From a virus (taxonomy: Duplodnaviria; Caudoviricetes), in the IMG/VR virus record IMGVR_UViG_3300048573_000207, positions 1 through 60,806 of that record: 60,806 bases of DNA; one strand, given 5' to 3'. The notes under the pieces were generated by a model, which was not told the DNA's origin, made no database searches, and saw only the letters and a program-made list of their open reading frames with translations. The translations under genes were made by a program, and so were the position numbers. Shown piece by piece: positions 30,954 through 60,470 of the stretch. Within the stretch, counting starts at the first letter, position 1. Every line of letters begins with the position of its first letter.

Positions 30954-31010
30954 ATGACAGTACGACTTTTATCTTTCTCACAACCGACGGCAGAATTTAA
31001 AAATAAGTAA
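30954..31010 (+). pseudogene. Orphan thyX N-terminal stub (MTVRLLSFSQPTAEFKNK*)
   Basis: Has an AAGGA RBS; aligns with ThyX start MKVELVSHSAPSTEM. Confidence 0.8.
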
Positions 31011-31046
31011 CCTGCTGTAGTTTCAATCTCAATCATAAATACTTTT

Positions 31047-31787
31047 ATGAAAAAGAGAATAAATTACAGACGAATATGGGTAGCTTATCATGGCAAAATT
31101 CCCAAGGATATAGACGGGCGATCGTTTGACATACATCACTTAGATGGTAATAGTGATAACAATAGCATTGGCAATTTAATAGCTATATCAGCATACGAAC
31201 ATTATTGCATACATAGAGATAAAGGCGAGTTTGGCGCTGCTGCAATGATTGCTAGACGAATGAAAACTAAGCCTAGCGACTTGTCCGAAACTGTTAAATT
31301 GCAAATGAAAAAGTTAATCGAATCGGGCCAACATAATTTCTCGGTTAAAGGATTTGTTAGTGTCAGGGATAAAGATGGTAATAATATGCGAGTAAGTAAA
31401 GACGACCTGAGATTTATCTCAGGTGAGTTAGTTGGAGTTAACACTGGATTTGTTACTGTTAAGGATAAAGATGGTAATAATATGCGAGTTAGCAAAAACG
31501 ACGATCGTCTTAAAACAGGTGAGTTAGTTGGAGTTAATACTGGATTTGTTACTGTTAAGGATAAAGATAGTAATAGTATGCGAGTAAGTAAAGATGACCT
31601 GAGATTTATCTCAGGTGAATTAAAAAGTATCAATTGTGGGAAAATTGGATATAACCTTGGTCGAACCTGGACCCAAACAAATAAGCGTCCGACTGTAAAA
31701 TGTCCACACTGTGCTAAAGAAGGTGACATTAGCCCAATGAAACAACATCATTTCGATAATTGTAAATATAAAATAGGAATAGTATGA
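31047..31787 (+). CDS. HNH homing endonuclease with three 32-aa repeats and C-terminal CxxC
   Basis: DIHHLDGNSDNN.IGNL...EH..IH; CPHC. Confidence 0.9.
   Translation: MKKRINYRRIWVAYHGKIPKDIDGRSFDIHHLDGNSDNNSIGNLIAISAYEHYCIHRDKGEFGAAAMIARRMKTKPSDLSETVKLQMKKLIESGQHNFSVKGFVSVRDKDGNNMRVSKDDLRFISGELVGVNTGFVTVKDKDGNNMRVSKNDDRLKTGELVGVNTGFVTVKDKDSNSMRVSKDDLRFISGELKSINCGKIGYNLGRTWTQTNKRPTVKCPHCAKEGDISPMKQHHFDNCKYKIGIV
31350..31637 (+). repeat. Three ~96-nt direct repeats inside the HNH gene
   Basis: GFV(S/T)V(R/K)DKD.N.MRVSK.D.R...GEL occurs three times. Confidence 0.9.
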
Positions 31788-32464
31788 AAGTAGAATTAGT
31801 ATCGCATTCAGCCCCATCAACCGAGATGGTAGGAAACGGGATAACCGACTTGCAGGAATTGGTGGCATTTTGTGCTCGAGTAAGCAATCCAGATAATCAG
31901 TATAATACTGAAACAAGTGAAAAACTGATTAATTACTTGATCAAACATAAACATTTTAGTCCACTTGAGATGGCTAGCGTATGCATGTCGATTGAGACCA
32001 CCAGAGATATCGCCAGGCAGATCCTTCGCCACCGTAGTTTTTCATTCCAAGAGTTTAGCCAACGTTATGCAGACCCTACCACGGACTTAGGCTTTGTTGT
32101 TAGAGACGCACGCCTACAGGACACAAAAAATCGTCAAAACAGTGTAGACTTAGACTTAACTGATGCTGATCAGCGTGAATTAAACAACTTGTGGATTGAA
32201 AAACAACAGGATGTTATTTGCCAAGCTAAACATGCGTATAACTGGGCAATTGCGAACGGAATTGCAAAAGAACAGGCCAGAGTTGTTCTGCCTGAGGGCA
32301 ATACCGTCAGCCGTTTGTACATGAATGGTACGCTGAGAAGTTGGTGTCACTTCATTGAATTACGTAGTGCAAATGGTACACAGAAAGAGCATCAGTTAGT
32401 TGCCTTGGCCTGTGCAAAAGCTATTGCAGCCATTTACCCGACTGCTAACAACTTAATCTCCTAA
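31784..32464 (+). CDS. thyX: Flavin-dependent thymidylate synthase
   Basis: RHRSFSFQEFSQRY ThyX motif; H.SPLE; EQAR.VLP. Confidence 0.95.
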   Translation: MKVELVSHSAPSTEMVGNGITDLQELVAFCARVSNPDNQYNTETSEKLINYLIKHKHFSPLEMASVCMSIETTRDIARQILRHRSFSFQEFSQRYADPTTDLGFVVRDARLQDTKNRQNSVDLDLTDADQRELNNLWIEKQQDVICQAKHAYNWAIANGIAKEQARVVLPEGNTVSRLYMNGTLRSWCHFIELRSANGTQKEHQLVALACAKAIAAIYPTANNLIS

Positions 32465-33523
32465 CTCTTTTGTGGCAGTTAACGAACCATCTGCGTTCTG
32501 CCACAAAAATCCCCAAGCGTTATTATAACGTGTAATGGTCGGTAAGCTGGGCCATTTTGTTTTATACTTCAAGTATTTCTCATTTGGCCAAATATCATTG
32601 ATCAGTTGTTTTGCTGGCAACTTGTATGTGTTCCATTTTCCGCCTACTTTAGCTTCGTTAGTATACAATGCCCACTGTTGATATTGTGTACTATCAAAGA
32701 AGTTTACAACATTGCCGGCCATGTATTCAGCTTGCTGTGCAGTTGGAGCATGCATTGCCATACGATACTTGACAGCTTGCCACTTCATTGCATAGTTTAA
32801 CCACCATAGGAAATCGTGATTGGTGTTGATAGGAACTGGACTTGCTGCTACCAATGCTCGTAACATTTCCTCACGTTCTTCTCTGTACGGTTCTTTTTTG
32901 TTTAACAACCAAGGAAGCGTTTCAGTTTCCCAATCACCGTGAATAGCATCAAAGTTATTTGAGTTATCCATGTAGCTTTTTAATGTCAAGCTACCAAACA
33001 AGTTATCGGCACATTCGCCAGTGACACACACATTCTTTGGATCCGTTACAATGTCATAAAACTGATTGCTTGGTAATAAGCGTGTACCAAAGTACGGTAG
33101 TACCACTTGATCAAAGAACTCGGGATTTTCCATTTGGCTATCTTCGTTGACAGCAAGCCAAGTGACTTTTTGCAACTCTGCCCAGTCTGGATGACTAATA
33201 AGCAAAGACACAATCAATGTAGAGTCAATACCGCCACTTTGAAAAATTACTAGTCGTTCTTTACCCGGCTCGCTCAGCTTGGCAATGCACTCATCAATCC
33301 TGTTATAAGATACTCCGCTAAAACTAGGAACAACAGATGGCCGCTCTGGGATAGGGCTATTGTTATAAATGTCAATACCCGGGATATCAATTGTACCAGT
33401 GCGATCGCTTAAACTGATCCAAGGGTTAAACATTTCAATGAATGTCTTTGTAACAGGATTGATATCTGCTGCTGCGGGACTACGGTACAGTCTGTGTGGG
33501 ATATAGTATAATAATTTTTTCAT
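32453..33523 (-). CDS. PP-loop asparagine-synthase-like protein
   Basis: SGGIDST and TGECADNLFG motifs (Asn synthetase C-domain-like). Confidence 0.7.
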   Translation of the reverse strand: MKKLLYYIPHRLYRSPAAADINPVTKTFIEMFNPWISLSDRTGTIDIPGIDIYNNSPIPERPSVVPSFSGVSYNRIDECIAKLSEPGKERLVIFQSGGIDSTLIVSLLISHPDWAELQKVTWLAVNEDSQMENPEFFDQVVLPYFGTRLLPSNQFYDIVTDPKNVCVTGECADNLFGSLTLKSYMDNSNNFDAIHGDWETETLPWLLNKKEPYREEREEMLRALVAASPVPINTNHDFLWWLNYAMKWQAVKYRMAMHAPTAQQAEYMAGNVVNFFDSTQYQQWALYTNEAKVGGKWNTYKLPAKQLINDIWPNEKYLKYKTKWPSLPTITRYNNAWGFLWQNADGSLTATKELGD

Positions 33524-33524
33524 G

Positions 33525-34145
33525 TTACATCATCATTGATAAAAACAAATCTTCTTCCATTTGTGATCGTACAATGGCAAATTCTTCTTTGTTTTTTGCT
33601 GCTCTAATCAACTGTTGAAATCTAATACGCAAACGTTCTAACTTTCTAATAGTTTGAACTCTGTTCTGATACTTGTTGACAATAAAGTGTGCGGCTGTTG
33701 GCAAATCTAAATTAGTTTCTTCTGCATAATCCTTGACAAGGCTACATTCTAAGCCTAGTCCCACTGTTACATTAAGGGCCTGTTGATATTTTAGTTCATA
33801 CGCTTCGTGTTGCCAAGTGTATCGGTATTCAAATCGTTTAAAGCCATGTGATAAACGTTGCTGTAGTTCACTCATTAAATTGACACGGGCCTGTAATTGG
33901 TGACTAAGGATCGTGGATTCCATGGGCTTACGATGTGCTAAAAATTCTGTATTGCGCGGCCCATCGAACTTTAGTTTAAAGTCTAAATTGCCTTGCTGTA
34001 GTTGGGCAGCATGCAAATCACTCACACTATAAATTCTACAAATTGCTTGAAACTCACCTAAGCAGGCAGATTCTAAAACTGATAACTCAGTTGCCCATGC
34101 CAATACTTCGTTTTCTGCGGTACATGCTAATGCTAGCCAATGCAT
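33525..34145 (-). CDS. Hypothetical protein; C-terminal half resembles tail-fibre assembly proteins
   Basis: Helical EAYELKYQQA...KLERLR segment; weak resemblance only. Confidence 0.4.
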   Translation of the reverse strand: MHWLALACTAENEVLAWATELSVLESACLGEFQAICRIYSVSDLHAAQLQQGNLDFKLKFDGPRNTEFLAHRKPMESTILSHQLQARVNLMSELQQRLSHGFKRFEYRYTWQHEAYELKYQQALNVTVGLGLECSLVKDYAEETNLDLPTAAHFIVNKYQNRVQTIRKLERLRIRFQQLIRAAKNKEEFAIVRSQMEEDLFLSMMM

Positions 34146-34175
34146 ATCAATAACTCCTATCGTTATTGTATGTAG

Positions 34176-34724
34176 TTAGGAAACGGAAGGGATGTTCTCC
34201 AATAGGATGTCATTGAGAAAGCGAATACTCAACATAAGTCTTGGGCTTGCACTTTGATTTTCGATATGATGTGGAATGTCAATCTTAACTAAGGTGGGTT
34301 TGTCAATTACTTTAGTTGCTACCAGTGTTGGTTCTTCTTGCCAGTTGATCTTCAGATACTTGATAGTTTTAAATGGGCTACGAGTTAAAAAGAAGTTGCC
34401 ATCATACCAATACATCGGACCGTTGTTGCAATTTAGAATAGGAAGATTTAGCGCGGTATTAGAAGCATTTACACGAGCTGGATCAAATCCGTCAACATGC
34501 AAATCTTGTACAAAGCCTGGCTCATTGATGAACATTATAGCTGTTTTGACACTAACATCAATTCCCAGCATGTCTGCAATATCGCGTTTAATTATGCTGC
34601 CAATGTATGCTAAGTCTTCTCCTGTGAACGTTATTGCCGTAGTAAAAGTGCCATCCCATTTACTTAGACAGTAATGTTGTATAGCAGGCCAACTTGGCAA
34701 GTTGATTTCTTTGAAATATTCCAT
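34176..34724 (-). CDS. 2OG-Fe(II) oxygenase / cupin-like protein
   Basis: LHVDG...ALNLPI...PHHIEN...RLMLSIRF; TAAATA five nt before ATG 34724. Confidence 0.65.
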   Translation of the reverse strand: MEYFKEINLPSWPAIQHYCLSKWDGTFTTAITFTGEDLAYIGSIIKRDIADMLGIDVSVKTAIMFINEPGFVQDLHVDGFDPARVNASNTALNLPILNCNNGPMYWYDGNFFLTRSPFKTIKYLKINWQEEPTLVATKVIDKPTLVKIDIPHHIENQSASPRLMLSIRFLNDILLENIPSVS

Positions 34725-34773
34725 AATAATATTTATTGGCAATCTTGTTCAACAATACTTCATAAGTACTAAC

Positions 34774-35232
34774 ATGGAACATATTATTGTATTTCTAAGC
34801 TGGACATTGTACTTGTATGTGATCCACCGCGTCATTCACGGAGTAGGCTTAAAATTCTTCCCTCTGGCATTTAAAGCACATGCTGATCATCACAAGTATA
34901 TCAATACACATGAACAAACAAAGTGGCATTGGAATAACCTGTTCTTGTTTAACGACACATGGACAAGCACACTCGACTTGTGGATCACAGAAGTTGTTCC
35001 AACACTGGTGTTTAGTTGGATAACTGGATATTGGTGGGTAAGTGTATTTTACTATCTATGGGCTGCATTAGTACAAGAGACGATTGAACATAATCCCAAG
35101 TTCAATTTGTATCCGTTTCTTACAAGTGGGAAGTGGCACTTGATTCATCATCGTGCCACTAACTATAATTACGGATTGTTTTTCCCAGTCTGGGATATTT
35201 TATTTAAAACTCACAAACCATTGGCTAATTGA
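34774..35232 (+). CDS. Sterol desaturase / fatty-acid hydroxylase family protein
   Basis: His boxes HRVIH, HADHH, HLIHH and NYGL..WD.LF.T. Confidence 0.8.
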   Translation: MEHIIVFLSWTLYLYVIHRVIHGVGLKFFPLAFKAHADHHKYINTHEQTKWHWNNLFLFNDTWTSTLDLWITEVVPTLVFSWITGYWWVSVFYYLWAALVQETIEHNPKFNLYPFLTSGKWHLIHHRATNYNYGLFFPVWDILFKTHKPLAN

Positions 35233-35906
35233 AATTGCTTTGCATGCCCGGTGCGCTCAATCCAGCTATAAAATGCTAGTATAGCTTTCTTTGGTTGTTC
35301 AACTTCTAATGTAAGTAGATGAGGCCAGATTTCTAAAAAATTTCTAGTAGAAACGTTCTTGGCAGCTAAGTTCTTTGGTACTAGACGTACATGTACTTTT
35401 CCCGTAGGCTCGATGAATACTTGACTAGGCCCGTTTAGTATGCCTGCTTTATCTAAAAATGCAAACGCATCTTCTACACCGTTTACAAAAAATGGTAGCG
35501 TTTGGTCTTTGATAATATTCCACTTGGCATCTTTATAAACAAATGCATCTACAATTGCATGTCGACCTTTGTATGACAAAATATTAAACATCTTGCCAAG
35601 CTCTACTTCAAACTTGGTTGTTAGGTAATGTTCTTTCCTGTTGGCCAATGGCTTATTGTTTAAAATAACTTGATTGCTGATATTATCTAGCCATTGTTGT
35701 CCGCTATTGTGCCATGCAATTGCTGACTTATATACTTGCTCTTGATCCCATGCACTATTATTTAAATCAAGTACATTTAGTTCCGGCGGGTAATCGAACA
35801 TCTGACTATTAGTGGTTGCTATTTGATAACTGACATTGCAAGCAGACAGAACCTTAATAAGTGATTCTGTCTGCTCTCCTGGATTTACTAATAATAGATC
35901 AATCAT
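35211..35906 (-). CDS. Hypothetical protein, possibly degenerate ATP-grasp
   Basis: SYKGRH...LDKAGILNGPSQ resembles the ATP-grasp C-terminal region. Confidence 0.4.
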   Translation of the reverse strand: MIDLLLVNPGEQTESLIKVLSACNVSYQIATTNSQMFDYPPELNVLDLNNSAWDQEQVYKSAIAWHNSGQQWLDNISNQVILNNKPLANRKEHYLTTKFEVELGKMFNILSYKGRHAIVDAFVYKDAKWNIIKDQTLPFFVNGVEDAFAFLDKAGILNGPSQVFIEPTGKVHVRLVPKNLAAKNVSTRNFLEIWPHLLTLEVEQPKKAILAFYSWIERTGHAKQFQLANGL

Positions 35907-36202
35907 TGATTAAAGTGCGTGGCCAATAATGCACCTACTACTCGGGTGACTCGAGTTTTAATAAGTTCACTATCCATCATAACTTCAAAGTCTACAATCC
36001 TGTCTAGATATTGTTCTAGTTGCTTACTTGCCAAAAGCTCGTTGCTACTTTTAATATCAGATAGGTCTTCCTTCTTAAAAACTACTTCAGTGCCATCATT
36101 GAGATACACTTTGATCCAGTCAATGTATTCGACTGGTACTTCTTCAACGTGTATCTCTCTTAGCATTTCTTCAAAGCTACGATCCTTTTTACGGATGCTC
36201 AT
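35903..36202 (-). CDS. Hypothetical phage protein
   Basis: GGAG RBS; coupled to the downstream gene. Confidence 0.7.
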   Translation of the reverse strand: MSIRKKDRSFEEMLREIHVEEVPVEYIDWIKVYLNDGTEVVFKKEDLSDIKSSNELLASKQLEQYLDRIVDFEVMMDSELIKTRVTRVVGALLATHFNQ

Positions 36203-36245
36203 CTAGTACTCCAAAATGATTTTAAACGGTCAAACAATTTTGGTT

Positions 36246-36881
36246 TTAAACTGCTTGAGCTTTCGACGGACGTCCTCGACCCCGTTTCGCTACTTCTGTT
36301 GTCACTTTTGATAACTGAGTCGGACTTACGGGGACGACCGCGGCCGCGCCTTTTGGGTCTAGCTTTTCCGCCTCCTCACGCAAGCGTCTTACTTCCAACT
36401 CAAACTGATTTGCTTGAGCGCGATACTTGCTTGCAAGAGCTTCGTCGGTAATAACACCTGGCGGGTTGTTTGCTGGAGCAGTAGTGGCAATATCACTTGA
36501 ACGTGTTCCAGCCGCTGCCTGTGTATTACTAATTTGTTTCAACTCGCGATTTAAATCAACCAAGTTGATAGTAACACCTGGCTTTGGAGTCATTGCAACT
36601 GACTTAGTTGGAACCTTAACCATCCAACCCTTTTGGTGAAGCGTGTTAAGCATATTTGTACCATCGTTGAAAACTTGACGGAACAAGTAATCACTTGTGT
36701 CCATTAAGTCTTGGCAGTTTGGATGTTCAATTGCTTTGATTAGATCGTCATGATATAATTGTGGTAATGCATCTGTTGGGATAATCAATGCTGATTCAGA
36801 ATCACCGGGCAATTCGCGAAATACCACAACGCATTTCTTCCCTTGACCGTTGACTCCAACATGTTTAATGAATTGCGCCAT
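36246..36881 (-). CDS. Hypothetical phage protein with C-terminal AT-hook-like KRGRGRP
   Basis: AAGGAG RBS before ATG 36881. Confidence 0.7.
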   Translation of the reverse strand: MAQFIKHVGVNGQGKKCVVVFRELPGDSESALIIPTDALPQLYHDDLIKAIEHPNCQDLMDTSDYLFRQVFNDGTNMLNTLHQKGWMVKVPTKSVAMTPKPGVTINLVDLNRELKQISNTQAAAGTRSSDIATTAPANNPPGVITDEALASKYRAQANQFELEVRRLREEAEKLDPKGAAAVVPVSPTQLSKVTTEVAKRGRGRPSKAQAV

Positions 36882-36897
36882 GTGGTAGCTCCTTAAA

Positions 36898-37131
36898 TTA
36901 CTCTGCTGCTGCGGTAACTTCAGGGCCTTCTTCAACTGGCACTGGTTCGCTGGCACTCAGGAACTGTGCCAACTTGTTATAAGTTGTACCGATGATTTCC
37001 ATTTCGCCGGCTCGGTAACCGCCGCGCTGTGATGCCAATTCAATTGCACCAGCAAGAATTTTCATGTCTTGTAGTGTTAAACCAACTGATTGTTGTGTTT
37101 GCTCTTGTTGTTCAGTTTGAACATTTTCCAT
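36898..37131 (-). CDS. Hypothetical phage protein
   Basis: AGGAG RBS; acidic 77-aa ORF. Confidence 0.7.
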   Translation of the reverse strand: MENVQTEQQEQTQQSVGLTLQDMKILAGAIELASQRGGYRAGEMEIIGTTYNKLAQFLSASEPVPVEEGPEVTAAAE

Positions 37132-37200
37132 TTAAATCTCCTAGGTTAAAGATGGATGTCTTCCGCAAATACTTATAGCACATTTTACCATGCGTGTAAC

Positions 37201-37229
37201 CAAAAAAAAAACGCACCTTAGGGTGCGTT
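37201..37229 (-). terminator. Intrinsic terminator
   Basis: AACGCACC-CTAA-GGTGCGTT hairpin followed by a long T run on the minus strand. Confidence 0.8.
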
Positions 37230-37257
37230 AAAAGGAGAAGGATCATAAGTAATAGAT

Positions 37258-37313
37258 GCAGCTCGCGGTGGTGGAACACCCAACTGCTCTAACGTTATAG
37301 GACAACGCCAGCA
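37258..37313 (+). ncRNA. Candidate structured cis-regulatory RNA leader, copy 1
   Basis: GCAG/CTGC, GGTG/CACC and CGTT/AACG stems; covaries with copy at 46842. Confidence 0.6.
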
Positions 37314-37952
37314 ATGATATTTATCAACAACAAATATACCAATTGGTATAATAACATAATTAGTAACGCCGCTCTAAGAATAGATTCTGGATACTCTGAA
37401 AAGCATCACATCATACCAAGGTCGTTTGGTGGCAGCAATGCTAAATCAAATCTAGTCAGACTCACTGCAAGAGAACACTTTGTATGCCATAAGCTATTGA
37501 CAAAGATGACAACAGGCACAGAAAAGAAGAAAATGCTATTGGCACTATTAATGATGTGCGTAACAAGCAAAAATCAACAACGACACAAAATAAATAGTTC
37601 CCAGTATGCACAGATCCGCGTTCAAGCAAGTAAAGCAAACAGCGGAGTCAACAATCCAATGTATGGCAGAAAGCGACCAGCTGAGGAACAACTACGAATA
37701 AATGCCACAAGCAAAGTAAACAGAGCAGCAAGTGGGCCTCGGACACATACAGAAGAAACTAAGAAAAAGTTGAGTAGCAGCCATATGGGAAAGAAACATT
37801 CTGCTGAGACAAAGGCTAATTGGAGTAAAGTTAGAAAAGGACGTGCAGGGCAGGATAATAATTCAGGCAAGCATTGGTACAATGACGGCACTAAATCATA
37901 TCTTGCAAAAGAATGCCCGGCTAATTGTGTGCCAGGCAGACTATGTTACTGA
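37314..37952 (+). CDS. HNH homing endonuclease with NUMOD3-like motifs
   Basis: EKHHIIPRSFGGSN..SNLV.LTAREHF.CH.LL; HTEETKKKLS. Confidence 0.9.
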   Translation: MIFINNKYTNWYNNIISNAALRIDSGYSEKHHIIPRSFGGSNAKSNLVRLTAREHFVCHKLLTKMTTGTEKKKMLLALLMMCVTSKNQQRHKINSSQYAQIRVQASKANSGVNNPMYGRKRPAEEQLRINATSKVNRAASGPRTHTEETKKKLSSSHMGKKHSAETKANWSKVRKGRAGQDNNSGKHWYNDGTKSYLAKECPANCVPGRLCY

Positions 37953-39170
37953 TTAATGTCGACTCTTGCCCGGTGGCACGTAGTTAGCAGTGATACCGAA
38001 CGGTGCTTTGATAGTATTGCTGCCGTGAACTACAAATAGTGTATCCGTATAGTCAGGGTCGCCCCAGCTACCAAACGGATAGCCGTCTGTAAACATAACA
38101 AGTTGATGCGGTTGGATGTCGTTATCTTTCATCCATTGCCACACACATTCAAAGCTGGTACCGCCACCACCTTGGATGTTGTATTCGCCCATGCTTCGAC
38201 CATCGTCACCAGTAAAGGTGTCTTCGTTGTAAACATCAGTGTCAAAGGTAACTACCCGCACCTTGTAACTAGTGAACTGATCCAGGCTACCTTGTACCAT
38301 GCCCAAGAAGTCTGACAACATGCGATCACAAATAGAACCTGAAGCGTCTAATGCAACAACAATATCAAGTTCTTCGCCAGGCAATTGTCCAGGCATAACT
38401 GCACCAGTATGCCAGGCCTTACGGTTAGGACGCATCCATGTGTAGTCGCTCTTGACACTGCCGGAGAACTGAATACGCAACAGGTCCTTCAAGTCCATTA
38501 CTGGAGCAGTGATGTCTTTTACAAGACGTTCAATGTCTAATGGACAGTTGCCTGCACCTGCGTTCTTTGCGGCCTGGATAGTGGCTTCGCGCCATTCGTC
38601 ACGCAAGGCTTTCTTTTCTTCCTCATTCAATTTCTTGAACTTAGGCTTGCCCTTACCTTTGCCTTCTTTGTCGCCATTGCCATCGCCATCGCCGCCCTCA
38701 TCTCCGTCACCATCCATGTCCAAGTGATCGTCAAACGGCATCTTGATAACAGTGGCGTTCTTCATCAAGTCCTCGTACACTTCGTCGGCAGTTTTGCCTT
38801 CGTACTTGCGGTCTGCTAAGATCTCAACAGCGGTAATACGGGTACCAACGTTTTCGCGGATCAACATATTGTTGATAACAAAATCACCAGCCATGTTCCA
38901 AACACCAGGATCGCGACTGCCACGCCGTGTCATGTGTTCAAAGATAATGTGCCCAAGTTCGTGTGCAAAACCAAAGATCAACTCGCCGTCGGAACACTTT
39001 TGAACAAAGTTTGAATTGTAGTAAAACTTGCGACCATCTGTTGCAATGGTCTTGCACCACTCAACTTCTTCTAGTTTCAAGCGAGCAGCCAACGGACCCC
39101 AAAAGGGATACTTGAGCAACATGCTAACACGGCTCTTAATTAAACGATCTTTTGCGGGCATTTTTGACAT
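37953..39170 (-). CDS. Metallopeptidase-VWA domain protein (DUF2201-like), MoxR partner
   Basis: HELGH zinc motif; DASGS MIDAS; GGGGTSF; FTDG. Confidence 0.85.
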   Translation of the reverse strand: MSKMPAKDRLIKSRVSMLLKYPFWGPLAARLKLEEVEWCKTIATDGRKFYYNSNFVQKCSDGELIFGFAHELGHIIFEHMTRRGSRDPGVWNMAGDFVINNMLIRENVGTRITAVEILADRKYEGKTADEVYEDLMKNATVIKMPFDDHLDMDGDGDEGGDGDGNGDKEGKGKGKPKFKKLNEEEKKALRDEWREATIQAAKNAGAGNCPLDIERLVKDITAPVMDLKDLLRIQFSGSVKSDYTWMRPNRKAWHTGAVMPGQLPGEELDIVVALDASGSICDRMLSDFLGMVQGSLDQFTSYKVRVVTFDTDVYNEDTFTGDDGRSMGEYNIQGGGGTSFECVWQWMKDNDIQPHQLVMFTDGYPFGSWGDPDYTDTLFVVHGSNTIKAPFGITANYVPPGKSRH

Positions 39171-50558: not shown

Positions 50559-50570
50559 TTTGAATTCCTA

Positions 50571-52544: not shown

Positions 52545-52545
52545 A

Positions 52546-52746: not shown

Positions 52747-53164
52747 TTTTTTCCCTTTCAGCTTCGTATACACGTTTTCTTAAACTGCTTGAACTAAAAC
52801 TATGATCACGACCGTTAAAGTATAAATCAATGTTTCGCTTGTGACAAATTTCACGTCCAGTAAACTCTTTACCCTCATACTCAACACCTAAGATGCGAAC
52901 ATTGATTGGTAAAGTAAGCAATAGATCTTCAAGGTCTTTTTCAGTATTGTACACCCAAACTTCGTCTACATAACGACTGCCTTTGAGTTGCATCTGTCGT
53001 TCCACAATGCTTTGCACAGGAGCATTTTTGGTAGGTCGATCCAGTGTGGGGTCGTTTTGCAACCCACAAATAAGATAGTCGCATTGTGTCTTTGCTTCTT
53101 GCAGCATGGACACATGGCCAGCATGCAGCAAGTCCCACGTTGAACACGTAAATCCCACTTTCAT
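52733..53164 (-). CDS. Cytidylyltransferase (TagD / glycerol-3-phosphate CT-like)
   Basis: DLLHAGH, ER..QL...YVDEV and SSSSLR motifs. Confidence 0.85.
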   Translation of the reverse strand: MKVGFTCSTWDLLHAGHVSMLQEAKTQCDYLICGLQNDPTLDRPTKNAPVQSIVERQMQLKGSRYVDEVWVYNTEKDLEDLLLTLPINVRILGVEYEGKEFTGREICHKRNIDLYFNGRDHSFSSSSLRKRVYEAEREKNENQ

Positions 53165-54156
53165 GCTCTCCCCTTGTACTCTGCAGAGTTATACCAGGCC
53201 CATGCAGTTTTAACAATATTGTCAATGCCGCTGTGTTCTGGTTCCCAGCCAATGGTCTTTTTGGCTTTGTCGGCATACGCAACCAATGTGGCCGGATCGC
53301 CTTCTCGCATTGGACCCTTGTGTACTAAAACTGTACGACCAGTAATGCGTTCAACTGAAGCAATAATTTCAGAGATGCTGGTACCCTTACCTGAACCAAG
53401 ATTTAACTCAACTGAAGTTCCTTTGTCAACTGCCTCTCCCCACTTGGTTGCAAGAAAGTGTGCTTCGGCAATGTCGGCCACGTGCAGGTAGTCTCGAACG
53501 CAGGTACCGTCGTGAGTGGGATACTCAGTTCCGTTTAATGTAAACACACCTTTGTTCACAATGGTTTCCATGATTCGAGCAATAACATGTGTTGCTGATT
53601 TTAACTGACCATGTCTAACTTGATCATCTGCGCCACATGCATTAAAGTAACGAAGTGCAACGGTTCTATAGCCATATGCCTTTGCACAATCACGCAGCAC
53701 TTGTTCAGCCATCAGCTTGCTATGACCGTAAGGACTGATTGGAACAGTTGGACTATTTTCTGTAAGTGTATTAGATCGCGGCTCGCCATACACCGCAGCA
53801 CTTGATGAATACACCACAGTCTTATGCCAGCCACGTTCAGCCAGCGTGGCCAGCAGTTTAGCAGTGCTGCCCACGTTGTTGGCATAGTAAAGTCCCGGGT
53901 CTTTTAAACTGGGCCCCACCAGGCTTGTTCCAGCAATATGAATCAGTGCAACAGGATTTTTATCAATGAACGAATTGATAAAGATTGCATTGTTAAAGTC
54001 GCCTTTGATAACTTGATCTAGTGATTCGGCAATCCAAGGCGCTGTGTTGTTGCGATCTACTCCAAGGACTTTATAGCCCAAGTCCTTGAAGCGTAGTGCA
54101 GTCTGCCCACCAATGTATCCGTTGCAACCAGTGATAGCAATCCATTTGTCTGCCAT
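53161..54156 (-). CDS. galE: UDP-glucose 4-epimerase
   Basis: G.NGYIG, SSSAAVYG, Y..SK, LRYFN and DGTCVRDYLHV motifs. Confidence 0.9.
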   Translation of the reverse strand: MADKWIAITGCNGYIGGQTALRFKDLGYKVLGVDRNNTAPWIAESLDQVIKGDFNNAIFINSFIDKNPVALIHIAGTSLVGPSLKDPGLYYANNVGSTAKLLATLAERGWHKTVVYSSSAAVYGEPRSNTLTENSPTVPISPYGHSKLMAEQVLRDCAKAYGYRTVALRYFNACGADDQVRHGQLKSATHVIARIMETIVNKGVFTLNGTEYPTHDGTCVRDYLHVADIAEAHFLATKWGEAVDKGTSVELNLGSGKGTSISEIIASVERITGRTVLVHKGPMREGDPATLVAYADKAKKTIGWEPEHSGIDNIVKTAWAWYNSAEYKGRA

Positions 54157-55337
54157 TAGTATTTTGCTCCTGCTACATGATCACGATAGCGATTACCTGC
54201 ACGGTTCCACTGCTCGCCTTTGCCTTCGATGATATCTAATACTCGATCAATGGTACCATCGTTCCAGTCGCTAATCTTACCTTGGTTGACGTGAGGTCCA
54301 GATAGTTGAATACGCAATTTGTTTACAGCGTCATCGATAGACCAAGGTACATAAAGCCGGGTATGGTCATTGGCGAATGTCTCAGGAAAGCTACGATAAG
54401 CAGGATACAAAACATTACAACCAAGAGCATCGGCTTCGCTAACGGTGTTTGAAACCCAATCCTGTAAAGCACAGTTGAACAAAACACGGCTATCATTGAC
54501 AAGATTATAGTAATCATTCTTTTGCAAATCCTTGTAAATCTTTAGCTTGCCTTCTGCTTCCATCTTGTAAGCACGTTCAAGATATTTAGGATTATTGCTA
54601 CGCAATGGTCCACCGCTTAGTACTGCGAACTCAACCGGATTGTTGGGTTGCTCAGCATGCCACTTCTCAATCAAGTCCATGAAAAAGTCTGGCTGCTTCT
54701 CTTGATCAAAACGTGCAGCAAACACTACACGATTAGCTCGTTCTGGCCAAGACTTGATATTTTCTGCGCCGCCGATGCGAGCACGTACTTCTTCTTTACC
54801 AAATGCTAAACCAGAGATGTTATAGATAGGAGCAGTCCAGTTTGCGATGCGCATGTGGGCTACCATCTCTTCGTTAGTGGCCAACACAGTAGCAAACTCA
54901 TTTACCATTTGCTCGTATGTACTCATCCACTTGGCCATACCCCATACATGAACAAAGTCATCGGGGTCAATCGCTTGTGCTAAACAACGTACAAAGATTT
55001 TAGGGCGCTGTTCTGCAGGAATCTGATCCATGATGTAAGGCAACGATTCGATGCCTGGTTGGAACATGTCTTCGAAGTAAATAACGTCTTGACCAGTAAC
55101 CTCGCCACTGCGCATCATCTGTACGAGATTCATCATCTGACTCATACCAAAGTAGCTTCGTCCATGTGCGTCTAACACTTGTCCTACTGAGATAGCCTTA
55201 GTGTTGTCAATAGTACTGCCTGGCACAATAACATAGTCAATGCCACGCCGTTTAAACACCGCTTCGTTCCAGTCTTGCAACTGTAGAGTGTATCTTCCCT
55301 GGTACGGCTCAAGTCCCATATACCACAACTTTCGCAT
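54156..55337 (-). CDS. GT-B fold glycosyltransferase
   Basis: FAARFDQEKQP...QDWVSNTVSEA..LGC..LYP (GT4-like C-domain). Confidence 0.75.
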   Translation of the reverse strand: MRKLWYMGLEPYQGRYTLQLQDWNEAVFKRRGIDYVIVPGSTIDNTKAISVGQVLDAHGRSYFGMSQMMNLVQMMRSGEVTGQDVIYFEDMFQPGIESLPYIMDQIPAEQRPKIFVRCLAQAIDPDDFVHVWGMAKWMSTYEQMVNEFATVLATNEEMVAHMRIANWTAPIYNISGLAFGKEEVRARIGGAENIKSWPERANRVVFAARFDQEKQPDFFMDLIEKWHAEQPNNPVEFAVLSGGPLRSNNPKYLERAYKMEAEGKLKIYKDLQKNDYYNLVNDSRVLFNCALQDWVSNTVSEADALGCNVLYPAYRSFPETFANDHTRLYVPWSIDDAVNKLRIQLSGPHVNQGKISDWNDGTIDRVLDIIEGKGEQWNRAGNRYRDHVAGAKY

Positions 55338-55399
55338 AAATTAGGTCTCCAATGCTAAATAAAATAATACTTATACAAGTATATAGGATATAAAAATAA

Positions 55400-56320
55400 A
55401 TGTCAACTAAAAAACTTACTCAGCAACAATTTTTGAACAGATGCATAGAAATTCACGGATCAAATTTTGATTACTCATTGGCATCTTATGTAAATGCTAT
55501 TACTAAGGTTACTATCAAATGCAATACATGTAATCACATATGGAGTGTCACTCCTAATAATTTTCTTAATAATCATAGTAGATCAGGGTGTCCAAACTGC
55601 AAACGTATTAAACAAATTGGGCGAGATACAAAAACAACTAGTAACATATTGGAAGAAATTAAAGCATGCCACGGTGATACATTTTTGTATGACCGGTTGG
55701 TTTATGTTAATTGTAATACCAAAGTAACCGTTGGGTGTAAAGTGCATGGATATTTTGACAAGTGGCCTAATGACTTAAAGCACGGGTCAGGATGCCCAAA
55801 GTGTTCGGGCAGTTTAGTAACGACAGACGAGTTTATCAATGATATGAAACTTAAACATTCAAACTTTGATTTTTCAAAATTTGTTTACACATCAGCAGCA
55901 ACTAAGTCTACGGTAATTTGCCAAGAGCACGGAGAATTTTTACAAACTCCGTCGGGGTTAAGAGCAACAAAACCCAACTATGGTTGTGCAAAATGCGGAG
56001 TCAAAAATCAATTGTTAACCTCTATTATCAACGGAAATATACGAGATCCCAAAGATATTCCTGAATACGAAAAATATCGTAAACAAGTCTGGAAAATATC
56101 AAATCAACAATTTGTCGAACACTATTGCAAGATCAATCCCGAAGACATCAAACGCGGACCTAAATATCACCTAGATCACAAATATTCAATACAACAAGGA
56201 TGGCAAAACATCGTTTTGCCAGAAATAATCGGAGGTTGGAAAAATCTTCAACTTCTTCCGGCAAAACAAAATCAATCAAAATCTAACAAATGTAGCGTTT
56301 TGCTCGAGGAAATACTATAA
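55400..56320 (+). CDS. Homing endonuclease with repeated zinc-ribbon modules and C-terminal HNH-like domain
   Basis: Three (F.Y....Y....KV...C..H/C..C...GCP.C) modules; HLDHKYS...NLQ.L....N.SKSN. Confidence 0.8.
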   Translation: MSTKKLTQQQFLNRCIEIHGSNFDYSLASYVNAITKVTIKCNTCNHIWSVTPNNFLNNHSRSGCPNCKRIKQIGRDTKTTSNILEEIKACHGDTFLYDRLVYVNCNTKVTVGCKVHGYFDKWPNDLKHGSGCPKCSGSLVTTDEFINDMKLKHSNFDFSKFVYTSAATKSTVICQEHGEFLQTPSGLRATKPNYGCAKCGVKNQLLTSIINGNIRDPKDIPEYEKYRKQVWKISNQQFVEHYCKINPEDIKRGPKYHLDHKYSIQQGWQNIVLPEIIGGWKNLQLLPAKQNQSKSNKCSVLLEEIL

Positions 56321-56334
56321 AATAGTTTTCTCAT
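56317..56334 (-). pseudogene. Orphan glycosyltransferase N-terminal stub (MRKLFY)
   Basis: AAGGA RBS and TTGCTT-N17-TATAAT upstream; matches the GT start MRKLWY. Confidence 0.75.
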
Positions 56335-56375
56335 TATAAAATCCTTTATTAGATATTATAGCAAAGCGCAAACGA

Positions 56376-56405
56376 AAAAGCAACGGCTTTTTACACCGTT
56401 GCTTT
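56376..56405 (-). terminator. Intrinsic terminator
   Basis: AAAGCAACGG/CCGTTGCTTT hairpin running into Ts on the minus strand. Confidence 0.65.
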
Positions 56406-56416
56406 GCCATCATGTA

Positions 56417-56899
56417 TTACAGGCGATTAGGCATGCAACATAAGCCATCTGCACTATGGATTGTCTCACGACACCATGCGCTCTTGTAAAGACCAACGTG
56501 GATCTTAATAGCCTTGCTAGCGCGGTCACGACCGCTTTGAATATTGACCGTGTAGGTAAAACTACGGTCGCCACTTGCTTCGTGTGTGCGAAGCTCCGGT
56601 GTGTCAATGGTGTATGCAAAGATCATACCGCTCTTGCACAAGTCCATCAAGTACTGGTTGTAGAAATCTAGTGGCAAGTGCCCTAGCTCTGCGCTCAACA
56701 CACCATCATACAACTCACTGATTTTCAGCAAGTCGAACTTGATGTGGTTGATGTTAAGGCCAGACCGCCGAGGTTGGTACTGGCTATTGTTGTTGTAACC
56801 ACGCTGTTCACGTGGGCCACGGTTGTCGCGATAACCGCGATCGTTATTGAACTTAACGTGATTGTTAAGCGTATTGCTTGAGGCATCCATTTTCGCCAT
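56417..56899 (-). CDS. Hypothetical protein with Arg/Gly/Asn-rich disordered N-terminus
   Basis: AAGG RBS before ATG 56899; DRGYRDNRGPREQRGYNNN. Confidence 0.65.
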   Translation of the reverse strand: MAKMDASSNTLNNHVKFNNDRGYRDNRGPREQRGYNNNSQYQPRRSGLNINHIKFDLLKISELYDGVLSAELGHLPLDFYNQYLMDLCKSGMIFAYTIDTPELRTHEASGDRSFTYTVNIQSGRDRASKAIKIHVGLYKSAWCRETIHSADGLCCMPNRL

Positions 56900-57093
56900 C
56901 CTTTGAATTTTGATAAGATTTGATAAATGATAACGATAGAGAAATAGGACTATGCCCAAACTTACTAACGTTAACTCTAATATACTTGTTTTTATGTGGG
57001 AGTCAAGCTGTCTACATAAGTTATAACTCCAAAAATGAGATGTGTTGAAAACATTACTCAATGTCCTGCCGTATTAAAAATTCAAAGAATTAG

Positions 57094-57471
57094 TTAAGGC
57101 TTATACTCAATAATACCGTCAGATTCACCATCTTCGGAAACCACTATTTCATAGTGACGTTCTCCGTAAAGCGGCCTAAGATGATTTTCTAAAATATCAG
57201 TTGCAATCATCTCACACGACTTGTGATTTTGATTTCCAGACTTGATAAATTCCTGCAGTGCCCATTTAACCAAGAAAAATTCTAATTCGCGATCTAGGTG
57301 TTCGACTGAAATTTTTACTTCTACTTTGAACATATGACGATGCTCGTTTTCAAGAAATTTGATACGAGAATCAATTAATCCTGCATTTGGGTAGTAGTGC
57401 CATCCTTCAAATTCAGTTCGAACTTTAATAAATGTCATTTTGTTAGGACCACTGTCTTGTGACATAACCAT
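57094..57471 (-). CDS. T-fold QueD-like protein with LxxxHRHxF motif (DpdL-like)
   Basis: F...H...FLENEHRHMF...SCEMIA...V.EDGE. Confidence 0.7.
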   Translation of the reverse strand: MVMSQDSGPNKMTFIKVRTEFEGWHYYPNAGLIDSRIKFLENEHRHMFKVEVKISVEHLDRELEFFLVKWALQEFIKSGNQNHKSCEMIATDILENHLRPLYGERHYEIVVSEDGESDGIIEYKP

Positions 57472-57474
57472 TCC

Positions 57475-57675
57475 TTAATCAATGTAGTTGTTGGCTTTTA
57501 AGTAAACCCACATCTTCCAATCAATAGCTTGAAGATGCTTTAATACTTCATCTAACTTTGTATTAAGTTCTTCGACTGTAACAGCCGGAGCACCTTCTGC
57601 TACTGGAGCTTTACTTGGGACTGGTCTTTTAGTTGGCTTATTAAAATTGCCAACTTTGACTTCTTCTTCACTCAT
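57475..57675 (-). CDS. Small hypothetical protein
   Basis: AAGGA RBS; IDWKMW motif. Confidence 0.7.
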   Translation of the reverse strand: MSEEEVKVGNFNKPTKRPVPSKAPVAEGAPAVTVEELNTKLDEVLKHLQAIDWKMWVYLKANNYID

Positions 57676-57684
57676 TGTGCTTCC

Positions 57685-58203
57685 TTAGTTTACGGGATTA
57701 TCGCCTACATAGGCATGCCAGGGTGTAAATGTGTCTCTATTCATAAGGTTATGTAAAGAATGACACCACACACCGGGGTTAGTTGCATTAAAACCTTTGT
57801 CATCAATTTTAATTGTTGTATTGTAGTTAAGCAATCTTGTATAGGGTAGTTTGACCGAAATCATTGGAATAACACGATTATCTTCAGAAGCACGGCTTTC
57901 TAAGAAGCCTTCAACTTGAGCCGAAGTTAAATCTATGGTCACATAATCAACTGCACTCGATTCAAGTACACCTTCGATCATATCGTCCCAAGATTTCCAA
58001 ACATCGTGATCATCATTACCTACTTCATGTAAACTCATATTAGCACCAATATAAACGTGCCGTGACTTTGAGTTTAACACATTAGCAATGATTGTGTCAA
58101 CCGGTTGAATGCCAACTACAAACAAGGTTCGCAGGCCTTTGGCAGGAGAGTTTTCGACTTCTACTCCTGTAAAGAAATCCGGAGCAACACGTTCAATTGT
58201 CAT
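57685..58203 (-). CDS. Hypothetical protein coupled to the TGT-like gene
   Basis: FFTGVEVE.SP..G..TLFVVG...KIDD..F.ATNPGVWCH. Confidence 0.7.
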   Translation of the reverse strand: MTIERVAPDFFTGVEVENSPAKGLRTLFVVGIQPVDTIIANVLNSKSRHVYIGANMSLHEVGNDDHDVWKSWDDMIEGVLESSAVDYVTIDLTSAQVEGFLESRASEDNRVIPMISVKLPYTRLLNYNTTIKIDDKGFNATNPGVWCHSLHNLMNRDTFTPWHAYVGDNPVN

Positions 58204-59785
58204 TGTCTAGTTCCTGTTCAAGTGCAGTTAAGTTCTCGTCATCTAAACCAGCCATGTCGTCATCATCTGGGACTTCGTCTGCTGTTTCAAAGATGTCATT
58301 GCTCTTGGCCTTACGGGCCGCTTCAACACCACCAAAGCTGATTGAGTTCAAGAACGTTGTGTTGTCGGAAATCATTTGACGCTTGTCTGCCATTGGTGTA
58401 GCAGGATCAAACAACACTTCAACAAAGTTGTTAAAGTACAAGATGTCATTGGGAAGGAACTCGCTTAGGTTAGGAGCCTTTTTGCCATAACCTGTTGCAT
58501 CTCGATAATCAACGTTGGGATTACGTGCATACTCGATGTCAGCCAGTCGCAATGTTTCTTGTACAGCTTGAATGTGGTTGTACACGTTATGAGCCATAAC
58601 AAACAAGTACGAAATAGTGTCCCAACTTGTTTTACCAATCTTGCCATTCTTGTTGGCATCGTTTGGACCAAGATAGCAAATGTCACCTGCAACCAAGCGT
58701 TCCATAATAGGACCTTGGTGAGGCATTTCCAATTGCGAACCCTTCATACTCTTGTTGTCAACGCTCTTACTCATTGAGTAAGTCAGCTTGTTGGGAGTAA
58801 AGTAGTTGTAATTGTAACTCAATGCATAACCACCTGCTGCCACAAAAGGACTAGCAGCATCAAAGCTGATGTTGATATTAGGGTTGTAATGCTTTTGCAG
58901 CTGACGTTTGATAGATGTCAAGTAGCAAGCCCACTTTAGACGACCAATACCCAAGAAGTGAATCCAATCCTTGTCAGCGATCAAATCATCTTCGATCAAG
59001 TCCAGCATACGATTCAGTACGCTTGGCATGTGCTTCATGTTGATACCAGCAAACGCCCAACCTTCTAATGTACGATCTTTAGAGTAGCCCATTTCTTCAA
59101 CAGACTCTGGCTTACTAAAGTGTTTGATTGTGTCGTACCATTGCTTGGAGTTATCTGGTGTGCTACCAGAGATAACATTTAGAAACTTTGTAGCACCTGG
59201 TACACGATGCTTCATAAAGTAATGAAGGTTGTGTACTGAAATGTCTAGTGTATCTTCAAACTTGGTTAGACCTGTTTTAGCACTTAGCGGAGGGACGGCA
59301 GCAAACGCAGGAACGTCAAGTGTCATTGACCAATCGGAAGTGTGTTCTAAGTAACGTAGAATTTCTTCACGGAACTTGTCACCTTCGGCACCTTTGATGT
59401 TCTTCCAATCCATCTTGATAACACCAGTGGCCAATTGGAAACCAGAGCTATCACCTACGATAATTGTTTTGCTACGATCACGTTTGTGAATCATTGGCTC
59501 TTTGTCATCACAGCGAGTCAGGTTGCGATCAGCATGTCCTGCTGAGTACAGAGCTACGCCATAGTGATAGTAAGAGTTTTCAGGGTCTAAAAAGTTAGTG
59601 CCTTCGATACCTTTTTCAAACTTTGCAGGTACGCGGCCCGGCGGTAGGAAATTGGGATCGGATGCAATCTTACCTAGCGTCTTAGTGTAGAATCCACTAA
59701 TGGCTGGCAAATATACTGCCCATTTAAATTTTCCATCAGCATCACGAGCACGGTCCGTTAAATCAACAGTTGGACTATTTTTCAT
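58193..59785 (-). CDS. tRNA-guanine transglycosylase-like DNA base-exchange enzyme (DpdA-like)
   Basis: GDSSGFQ, MTLDVP, IHFLG and SFDAASP motifs of the TGT fold; context with folE/queE. Confidence 0.7.
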
Positions 59786-60380
59786 TTTTTCTTTTCTCCC
59801 ATAATTTTTTCCTAGATTCAGACATTTTCTTTTTTGTTTCTTCGGACATTACTCGTCCTTTAAGAGCTGCACTTATTTTGGCTTTTTGCTCGGGAGTGTT
59901 TGGTCTACCCTTGTGAGACTCACTCATTTTTTTTCTAGTTTCTTCACTTACTTCAACACCAAGTCTACTACCTACTTGAACACCAGTTAATCCTTTATTC
60001 CATGGGATATTACCTTTACCAGCTTTGCTTAGATTTTTCTTATGCTCTTCGGATTTAGGCTTGCCGCTAGCTGCAATACTCATATTTTTCTTGTGCTCTT
60101 CAGATTTGGCCGTAGTATTACCAGTTGCGCCTTCGCCGCCATCTGTTCGATTGTGTAGTATCCCAGTTCCTGAATCTTTTCGACCATACCATCGAATCAT
60201 TCTTCTTTCAAGTGCAAACGCACCAGGTTCAGTTAAATTAGTTTCTAGCATGACTATCCTGGAATGATCCAGCGGTACATGTACATTAAGATGTTTGTTC
60301 CATGCACGACAATCTTTGCCTTTACCAATATAGTATGGTGTTAAATCGCTTGCTCGCAAGTAAGCATATACATAAAACAT
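59775..60380 (-). CDS. GIY-YIG-like homing endonuclease with NUMOD3 repeats
   Basis: YVYAYLR...PYYIGKG..RA...AF.LE...I..YGR.D...G.L.N.TDGGEG; SEEHKKN / SEETRKKMS repeats. Confidence 0.9.
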
Positions 60381-60437
60381 AGTAGTCTCCTATATGTTTA
60401 CTAATACGATTACTTGCGATATTAGCCTATTACTTGG

Positions 60438-60470
60438 TTAAATTGCTCGTTTAGTTAAGTCGATACTCAT
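60438..60470 (-). pseudogene. Orphan DpdA-like N-terminal stub (MSIDLTKRAI*)
   Basis: ATG overlaps the clamp stop (ATGA); IDLTKRA matches VDLTDRA near the start of the TGT-like protein. Confidence 0.75.

Follow-up and report, generated by a model that had tools for sequence, protein, structure and literature searches.

The seg (GIY-YIG) and mob (HNH) genes of T4-like phages are free-standing homing endonuclease genes (HEGs) that spread by intronless homing, with co-conversion of flanking markers (PMC2988022; this and the other published systems are described here from the available parts of the sources). The DNA analysed here, referred to as the window, is the whole of the linear IMG/VR virus record IMGVR_UViG_3300048573_000207 (60,806 bases, Caudoviricetes, estimated completeness 18%), in which three selfish nuclease genes very probably lie each inside the first codons of a conserved gene, supplying it with a new start and new first codons while the original start is left behind as a stub. 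The targets are a thymidylate synthase gene (ThyX), a glycosyltransferase (GT) gene and a gene for a 530-aa protein with a predicted tRNA-guanine-transglycosylase (TGT)-like fold, here called DpdA-like; the replaced gene starts, or heads, are short, at about 69, 18 and 75 nt, respectively.

As with seg and mob, the genes in question are free-standing GIY-YIG or HNH genes that adjoin a conserved target and are present in some and absent from other related phages, and in both systems a donor flank replaces recipient sequence; self-immunity in T4 derives from the sequence difference (PMC2988022). The T4 genes are intergenic and their products cut tens to thousands of bp away, and in the available part of that source neither an orphan head nor a supplied start is described (PMC2988022), whereas in the window the junction falls within codons 2-17, with the new start codon, for ThyX and the DpdA-like gene, overlapping the nuclease open reading frame (ORF). 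The mORF gene hybrids of fungal mitochondria, reported for atp6 of Allomyces macrogynus and for atp6, atp9, cox2 and nad3 of Glomus (PMC3630166), likewise combine an endonuclease ORF with a foreign copy of a gene end, the native end persisting as an adjacent relic that resembles relatives more closely than the in-frame copy does, with no splicing (PMC3630166). The same relation was found in the window, where the in-frame duplicates are foreign and the relics native, by base identity to relatives in ThyX and GT (values below) and by the grouping of the DpdA-like head with nuclease-linked heads. The mORFs replace the 3' end, and with it the C-terminus, and are often in phase with the gene (PMC3630166), whereas in the window it is the 5' end that is replaced, with a new ribosome-binding site (RBS) and start; no C-terminal replacement of the mORF kind was found in the window, and a 3'-relic counterpart occurs in a neighbouring gene of one relative, L041.

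Genes split by HEGs are known from Aeh1 (nrdA, with mobE), T4 (genes 39/60, with mobA) and phage 25 (gp43) (PMC2988022), and share with the window a free-standing HEG within a coding region, with no intron or intein. Both parts of such genes in pieces are long, needed and reassembled as protein, with no duplication (PMC2988022), unlike the arrangement in the window, in which a dispensable stub of 6-17 codons stands beside a gene made complete by a duplicated, diverged head. In the HEG islands of ICP1-like and other phages, small genes beside the HEGs are fragments of essential cargo genes that were suggested to be recombination substrates (PMC10055350), and nucleases mark exchange boundaries (PMC10448857); the available parts of these two sources do not present the fragments as native heads pushed aside by an imported start and first codons, and give neither exact junctions nor empty alleles. 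Group I intron and intein homing is similar in that insertion would split the recognition site, giving immunity, and in that the targets are conserved parts of important genes, and differs in that the window elements have no ribozyme or intein, gene function being saved at the DNA level by duplication and replacement. The initial annotation of this DNA knew of no description of the arrangement as a general class. In the literature outside subscription journals, as far as the available parts of the sources extend, no account of nucleases that carry replacement gene heads and leave orphan start stubs was found for phages; there are nevertheless partial precedents (PMC3630166, PMC2988022, PMC10055350).

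Nucleases, stubs and replacement heads at three gene starts

The three stub-nuclease-gene triplets proposed in the initial annotation are all present in the sequence. Comparisons in IMG/VR were made with 80 loci per family out of all relatives found (80 of 600 for ThyX, 80 of 584 for GT and 80 of 429 for the GIY-type nuclease; 79 relatives, 78 loci, for the 530-aa gene), the loci being designated here by L and a number. DNA searches of a phage collection returned only distant relatives of the window, uninformative for ThyX and the DpdA-like gene, and a single informative named relative, the freshwater Synechococcus phage BUCT-ZZ01 (Kyanoviridae), which bears on GT only; all other relatives used are metagenomic contigs. 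Near-identical DNA was detected by word matches in many freshwater metagenome runs, and contigs of four public runs were compared with the window, among them a DNA run (X4) and two RNA libraries (X20 and X23), whose contigs do not span the nuclease ORFs and, being contigs, have no bearing on expression. All three nucleases belong to homing endonuclease families by Pfam or PHROG matches, none had a significant match among PDB sequences, and for all three a presence/absence polymorphism was found at the same site among related genomes.

The DpdA-like locus, on the minus strand, gave the exact extent of one element. The upstream gene (60467-60805, PHROG 12062), which runs off the window and is 86-91% identical in DNA to nuclease-free relatives, has a stop that overlaps (ATGA) the start of the stub ORF MSIDLTKRAI* (60470-60438), of which 29 nt (60470-60442) are native head. 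The nuclease ORF follows (60380-59775), and the intact 530-aa gene (59785-58193) begins at an ATG within the last nuclease codons, so that its replacement head of 25 codons (59711-59785) starts inside the nuclease ORF. In seven distinct IMG/VR contigs (11 loci) the last 11 upstream bases of the window run straight into the ATG of MS/TIDLTK(R/K), and the closest clade of 530-aa relatives begins M(S/T)ID(L/M)(T/S)K(R/K)A(M/V/I). The 45 bases before the ATG are all identical (45/45) to L165 and L166, and the stub shares 25-28 of its 29 bases with the heads of L164-L168. The upstream gene and stub of the window align to these empty alleles up to native nt 29, and the gene body aligns again from 59713; the native allele rejoins at 59710, with 90% identity to L165 over the next 90 bases, while residues 1-24 of the protein are unlike the native clade, identity being at the native level right after them.

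Both forms of this allele were found in the freshwater DNA run X4, which is not flagged as a possible source of the window and where a contig of depth 12.7 joins 60442 to 59710 through 22 other letters, alongside contigs of the occupied form. These 22 letters correspond to the native codons of L166 just past the stub, and the same empty joint (60442/59710) was also found in X20 and X23. The mobile element, made up of a leader, the nuclease ORF and the replacement head, therefore extends exactly from 59711 to 60441 (joint 59710/60442) and stands as 731 nt in place of 22 native nt. In an alignment of heads, the imported one resembles those beside the homologous nuclease in L267, L277, L281 and L276, and not those of the native clade.

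The nuclease at this locus has four NUMOD3 motifs (Pfam E 1.4e-13) and matches PHROG 'homing endonuclease' (E 1.8e-22). The putative assignment of its N-terminal domain to GIY-YIG follows from motifs and homologue annotations: YVYAY, YYIGKG, R25, E58 and N77 are invariant in 11 homologues, and tblastn homologues are annotated as Seg-like, GIY-YIG or intron-associated endonucleases. Those in named phages are distant only, and the S-SRM01 locus that was inspected is not beside a DpdA-like gene. The 530-aa protein had no match in Pfam, PHROG or NCBIfam and no PDB profile match at E<=1; all 15 Foldseek matches of its AlphaFold2 model (pLDDT 83.8) with E<=0.001 were TGT/QTRT chains (best E 5e-7, probability 1.0, with modest TM scores of 0.36/0.48-0.51), making 'DpdA-like' a plausible name at the level of the predicted fold only.

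At the GT locus the nuclease ORF (55400-56320, plus strand) is antisense to the target, an intact group 1 GT (54156-55337, minus strand; Pfam Glycos_transf_1, E 2.4e-6, 27.6 bits against a cut-off of 26.4). The stub ORF (56334-56272, minus strand) reads MRKLFY plus 14 unrelated codons; only its first 18-19 nt (56334-56316) are native GT head, the remainder being the antisense of the nuclease 3' end. A terminator-like hairpin (56377-56405, minus strand) stands before the native promoter and RBS region of the stub, and in the nuclease-free L015-L017 the hairpin, the TATAAT box and the RBS are kept as in the window and followed by GT directly; window 56902-56316 is 87% identical to L015 3435-4019 (blastn). 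The stub has 17/18 bases identical to the GT heads of L015/L017, versus 13/18 for the replacement head, six codons reading MRKLWY (55320-55337, minus strand), and the 30 nt that follow the new head are again close to L017 (28/30). All 80 GT relatives have heads of the form M/V-(R/K)(R/K)-L-(F/Y/I)-Y, with Trp at position 5 in none, and in BUCT-ZZ01, which lacks the nuclease, GT starts MRKLFYMGLE, its head being identical to the stub at 16 of 18 bases. The comparison indicates an insertion of about 1 kb after nt 18-19 of GT, with an 18-nt diverged duplicate. Contigs from other samples cross the stub, the nuclease and the GT start with zero differences (X4 record 18, X5 record 25); no empty-allele joint for GT was found in the four runs compared, which is not a sign that empty GT alleles are absent there.

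Inside the GT element and facing GT are a promoter-like site, TTGACA-17-TATACT (11/12; 55378-55406, minus strand), and a GGAG RBS, both of them consensus matches only; in both the window and L239 (see below) the -35 hexamer coincides with nuclease codons 1-2 read antisense. The nuclease is built of repeated treble-clef/zinc-ribbon modules that are CapR/DUF723/DUF4379/DUF7836-like (Pfam DUF7836 E 6e-8, the other three weak), matches PHROG 'HNH endonuclease' (E 7e-40) and 'endonuclease VII' (E 1e-4), and has a C-terminal H-x-D-H...N...N motif, HNH-like as judged by eye. Its tblastn homologues in named phages are distant only, the ribbon repeats being widespread there.

The ThyX locus is on the plus strand. 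The upstream gene, of the fatty-acid desaturase family (30061-30945; Pfam FA_desaturase E 5.5e-13), is collinear by blastn with the gene directly 5' of ThyX in the nuclease-free L083, L084, L108 and L090, where it runs directly into ThyX. In the window it is followed by the stub ORF MTVRLLSFSQPTAEFKNK* (30954-31010), in which about nt 1-51 are native ThyX head, followed by two codons and a stop, and by the HNH nuclease ORF (31047-31787), the stop of which overlaps the ThyX ATG (ATGA). This nuclease has an N-terminal HNH_3 domain (Pfam E 9.3e-9, above cut-off), then three copies of a repeat of about 35 aa and a C-terminal Cys/His cluster, and matches PHROG 'HNH endonuclease' (E 4e-23) and 'intron-like DNA endonuclease' (E 3e-21). 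The intact ThyX (31784-32464), which starts MKVELVSHSAPSTEM, has a chimeric 5' end and is a flavin-dependent thymidylate synthase by its Thy1 domain (residues 22-220; Pfam E 8e-43).

The replacement head of ThyX comprises 23 codons (31784-31852), and blastn homology to L083 is picked up again at 31853. Stub-type heads, beginning MTV(R/K)L, are found in L083 and L084; 41 of 51 bases of the stub are identical to the L083 head, versus 30/51 for the new head, and over its whole length the new head matches L083 at 37/69 bases, while the gene body is 83% identical to L083 in amino acids. The stub and the body have the same nearest relatives, the stub sharing 14/17 residues with L083 and 13/17 with L084, and the body 83% and 78%, respectively. 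The new head shares 9-13 of its 23 residues with each of the sequences compared and has no close relative.

In all three cases, as the initial annotation had predicted for empty alleles, nuclease-free relatives read a stub-type head and the gene body in frame, behind the same upstream genes and with no extra stub. The switch from replacement to native sequence lies near the 5' end of each gene, at 31853 in ThyX, at 59710 in the DpdA-like gene and after codon 6 in GT. Retention of native signals by the stubs was borne out by the sequence and by the context in L015-L017 and L165/L166 (an RBS, a promoter region and ATGA coupling), as were the new starts of the intact genes, which are coupled to the nuclease ORF in ThyX and the DpdA-like gene and face the promoter-like site and GGAG RBS of the element in GT. 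The accompanying idea that all targets are nucleotide or DNA-modification genes fits ThyX, but the 530-aa protein is TGT-like by structure prediction only and GT has no assigned substrate.

Heads that travel with nucleases, and alleles that have lost them

Beside the insertion polymorphism, exact junctions and foreign heads, the relatives display linkage of heads to nucleases, recurrence of insertion at the same site, and decay and loss of the nuclease. The replacement 5' ends, first proposed to be diverged and cleavage-resistant, are foreign and nuclease-linked according to the alignment of DpdA-like heads and to L239 and L280, their cleavage resistance being a prediction. The 15 closest homologues of the GIY-type nuclease (L267-L281, 56-65% identity) have a conserved leader in common, found in the window too, and lie in at least seven different left contexts. 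Flanks were inspected at eight of these loci, and in each the stop of the nuclease and the start of a 530-aa gene homologue overlap; the left junctions of the other 7/15 are identical to one of these eight. A head MK(S/N)RPP(V/I)DL, resembling the imported head of the window, stands beside the nuclease in L267, L268, L271 and L277, and the heads of L276 and L281, which resemble it as well, have the 4-residue insertion with ...WAV. L280 carries a DpdA-type stub of 30 nt, at nearly the same position as the 29 nt of the window, and L281 a possible, ambiguous stub of 6 nt, while no stub was seen in L267, L271, L276, L277 and L278.

The leader of the GIY-type element (about 2455-2500 in L267-L281; 60381-60441 in the window) contains in most relatives TATAAATA just before the RBS, and the copy in the window differs. 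This motif resembles the consensus of T4-type late promoters.

For GT, the closest relative of the nuclease (49.7% identical) is in L239, at the same site and also antisense to GT, with an 18-nt stub and a GT head that reads MRKLWY, again with Trp5. A second HNH lineage, on the same strand as GT, is found in L031 and L069, with stubs of 10 and 6 nt, respectively, and heads with Cys7, a residue present in 3/80 GT heads (L031, L069 and L040). In L221 a native stub of 31 nt is followed by a decayed, 65-aa HNH remnant of this second lineage and a new head; in L217 the stub is followed by a scar of about 32 nt from the 3' end of the element and a new head, the nuclease being gone; L220, L227 and L230, which have no HEG, have an uninterrupted GT head. 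A search by head pattern found short stub ORFs upstream of 3 of 128 GT starts (loci not de-duplicated), namely in the window, L217 and L221; the stub ORF of L239 is longer and was filtered out, making four, all of them in element-bearing or scar loci.

A 3'-end counterpart was observed in L041 (1560-2881), where a complete, 124-aa QueD-like gene of the type found in the window comes first, then an HNH gene in the opposite orientation (1915-2646), and then a relic of 63 aa that can be aligned with the C-terminal portion of the QueD-like gene, of native type, in L069/L040.

A proposed mode of movement and the competing explanations

We hold with considerable confidence that three unrelated free-standing HEGs have each entered a conserved phage gene a few codons from its start, by intronless homing, bringing a replacement head. 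Besides the nuclease ORF, the mobile unit would contain signals for translation, a start codon and, from the donor lineage, the first 6-25 codons of the target. The start codon overlaps or abuts the nuclease ORF in the same-strand cases (ThyX and DpdA-like), and a promoter-like site belonging to the element precedes it in the antisense case (GT). Insertion would part the native head from the body, the head remaining as an orphan stub behind the native expression signals and the body being read from the imported head, so that no RNA or protein splicing would be needed. The nuclease would recognise the conserved head region and cut a naive allele near the position of the stub end, and double-strand-break repair would copy the element from an occupied genome, finding homology on the left in the upstream gene and stub and on the right in the gene body; immunity of the occupied allele would come from the split of its target and the divergence of the gene-side half. 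The first invasion of a new genome would probably join the left side illegitimately, the upstream gene and stub then serving as an ordinary homology arm, and such joining at first entry is proposed as the reason for stubs of variable length, stubless alleles and a stub from another gene. The activity of the nucleases, their cut sites, immunity and the repair pathway are predictions from sequence, as is expression from the signals of the stubs and new heads.

Several observations weigh against this reading or narrow it. Stubs are not constant: among nine distinct contexts of the GIY-type element, two have a clear target stub, one an ambiguous stub of 6 nt, one a stub of another gene and five none. 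The stub of another gene is that of L268-L270 (around 2430-2500, compared with L267 1780-2452), where the element is preceded by five codons, MIKGE*, of a gene that is intact (130 aa) in L267, and this 130-aa gene and the following 98-aa gene are missing in L268-L270, from which it follows that a GIY-type element can enter with a deletion, leaving a non-target stub. Head variants are not strictly tied to occupancy, since L040 has a Cys7 head without any nuclease, its upstream gene overlapping the GT ATG (about 3960-4060) just as upstream genes do in other alleles that lack a nuclease; L040 may once have been occupied, or its allele may be resistant. The replaced GT tract is fixed to 18 nt only, the relatives being about 71-76% identical in DNA. 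For ThyX, the relatives of the nuclease (8 IMG/VR and 7 metagenome loci) match in part only and none of the five inspected adjoins ThyX, so that with no second occupied example this case rests on its empty alleles; furthermore, in L109 (3439-4011), which is of another lineage, a different HNH_3 gene (35% identical over 96 aa to the ThyX-locus nuclease of the window) lies directly before ThyX, its 3' end overlapping the ThyX start, with no clear stub. As regards the GIY-YIG label, the Pfam GIY-YIG profile matched 0/11 family members at E<=1, and the best Foldseek match of a low-confidence model of the nuclease (pLDDT 63.5) had E 1.7.

The likeness of stub and head peptides within the window is also weak. 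When start-codon-initiated peptides beside nucleases were scored against the head of the neighbouring gene at 114 nuclease loci, together with the window, L031, L069 and L109, the stub-head scores of the window were 27, 27 and 22, while permuted flanks (n = 485) had a 95th percentile of 24, a 99th percentile of 28.3 and a maximum of 32. By itself this likeness is not significant, and the case for the stubs therefore rests on comparison with other genomes. The survey for stub-nuclease-gene triplets suggested in the initial annotation was thus of limited use in its peptide-only form, which was dropped as a survey tool on account of its high null, although it did point to L280.

Among the competing explanations, the one that survives best, though we consider it unlikely, is that general or illegitimate recombination swapped the heads and that the nuclease is a passenger at a mosaic boundary, not targeting gene starts. 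It would accommodate the variation of the left junctions, with stubs of 6, 10, 18, 29-31 or 51 nt, none, or that of another gene, and cleavage by the nucleases is itself a prediction. A step in relatedness to L015 also occurs at the GT nuclease, with 87% DNA identity upstream versus 76% across GT and the downstream epimerase gene (window 53100-56902), and fits nucleases at exchange boundaries as described in the available part of one source (PMC10448857). A passenger would not, however, be expected to recur as diverged homologues of the same nuclease at nearly the same nucleotide, as seen at GT nt 18 in the window and L239 and at nt 29-30 of the DpdA homologue in the window and L280, nor to be fused to the same gene start in 8/8 inspected GIY-type loci despite different left contexts (the other 7/15 share left junctions with these). 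The replaced tracts, moreover, are very short and bounded, as expected of break-proximal conversion.

It appears improbable, to a greater degree, that the stubs are kept by selection, either as leader peptides or upstream ORFs that tune nuclease expression or as a left homology arm for homing. The stubs do retain native RBS and coupling signals, and gene fragments in HEG islands were proposed by Barth et al. to be recombination substrates (PMC10055350, available part); yet many occupied alleles have no stub, and in L217 the stub has outlasted the nuclease, which looks like neutral persistence. Because many occupied alleles are stubless and one has the stub of another gene, the stub looks like a scar or by-product, possibly useful, rather than a designed component. 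The splicing-free 'strategy' originally put forward is accordingly supported as an arrangement and too strong with respect to the stub, a clear target stub being found in 2/9 GIY-type contexts.

That the stub is a 5' exon, joined to the body as RNA, and that a self-splicing intron houses or adjoins the nuclease, as in classical or collaborative homing, is very improbable, even though short unannotated ORFs beside phage HEGs have proved to be exons, as in the ICP1 terminase (PMC10448857, available part). No Rfam family reached the gathering score anywhere in the window, and no intron family, group I or II, was matched even at E<=10 in the three element regions; the sequence outside ORFs that flanks the nucleases amounts to 36-66 nt, and neither a ribozyme core nor exon ligation, as in group I introns, was found. 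Each nuclease ORF has a start and a stop of its own, each downstream gene has a separate RBS and start and a complete homologous head, and the GT nuclease is antisense to its target. The occupied DpdA-like allele lacks 22 nt that the native one requires, and the sole stub-body joint found has them, in a DNA run. An intron or intein was rejected on the Rfam null and this joint, in agreement with the absence of an intron in the initial annotation.

A chance likeness of short ORFs, or a chimera in what is a metagenomic contig, has next to no probability, in spite of peptide scores that place ThyX and the DpdA-like gene in the top 5% but not the top 1% of the permuted flanks and GT below the 95th percentile, given that empty alleles agree base for base with the stub DNA and the sequence before it, that the same architecture occurs in unrelated IMG/VR contigs, that the few stub ORFs at GT starts are all at element-bearing or scar loci, and that independent assemblies from other samples bridge the GT arrangement (0 differences) and both junctions of the occupied DpdA-like form (X5 record 32, 12 differences), which makes an assembly artefact unlikely.

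Wider implications and other genes of the window

Replacement of the head by a nuclease-borne copy would be a third way for a homing endonuclease to reside inside a coding sequence, beside splicing (introns, inteins) and splitting into two working pieces. We lean, by a narrow balance, towards a broader proposal, namely that free-standing HEGs of phages commonly travel as 'portable gene heads', in which a nuclease fused to the start and first codons of its target lands in essential coding sequence without splicing, destroys its own site and is hard to delete; this would be a general, as yet unnamed mode of homing and the 5' mirror of the mORF hybrids. If so, an orphan stub would mark the position of the cut or join, predicted target sites being about nt 51 of thyX, nt 18 of GT and nt 29 of the TGT-fold gene, and a tandem duplicated head would remain after decay of the nuclease, as in L217. 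The N-termini of conserved phage genes would be continually rewritten, as in the GT changes Phe5 to Trp and Met7 to Cys, and such elements would diversify N-termini and produce short tandem duplications of heads in these genes. The arrangement would also account for orphan mini-ORFs and odd N-termini beside nucleases in phage annotation, and it points to a simple rule of design by which cargo could be placed at a gene start with the function of the gene preserved.

A fourth free-standing nuclease gene (37314-37952, plus strand, 212 aa) has an HH...N...H motif, seen by eye, and a NUMOD3 match (Pfam E 3.7e-8). The genes on either side of it are on the minus strand, its stop abutting that of a 405-aa gene (37953-39170), and no stub was seen beside it. 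In addition to the desaturase-family gene upstream of the ThyX stub, the window has a gene of the fatty-acid hydroxylase family (34702-35232, plus strand; Pfam E 1e-12), and its first half includes a single ORF of 2,900 aa (10020-18722, plus strand). The segment 56902-57508, upstream of the GT stub, is variable: contigs in X5 and X20 skip 550-605 bases, with joints 56902/57453 and 56902/57508, and the skipped segment covers a QueD-like gene (57094-57471) and the start of a 214-aa ORF.

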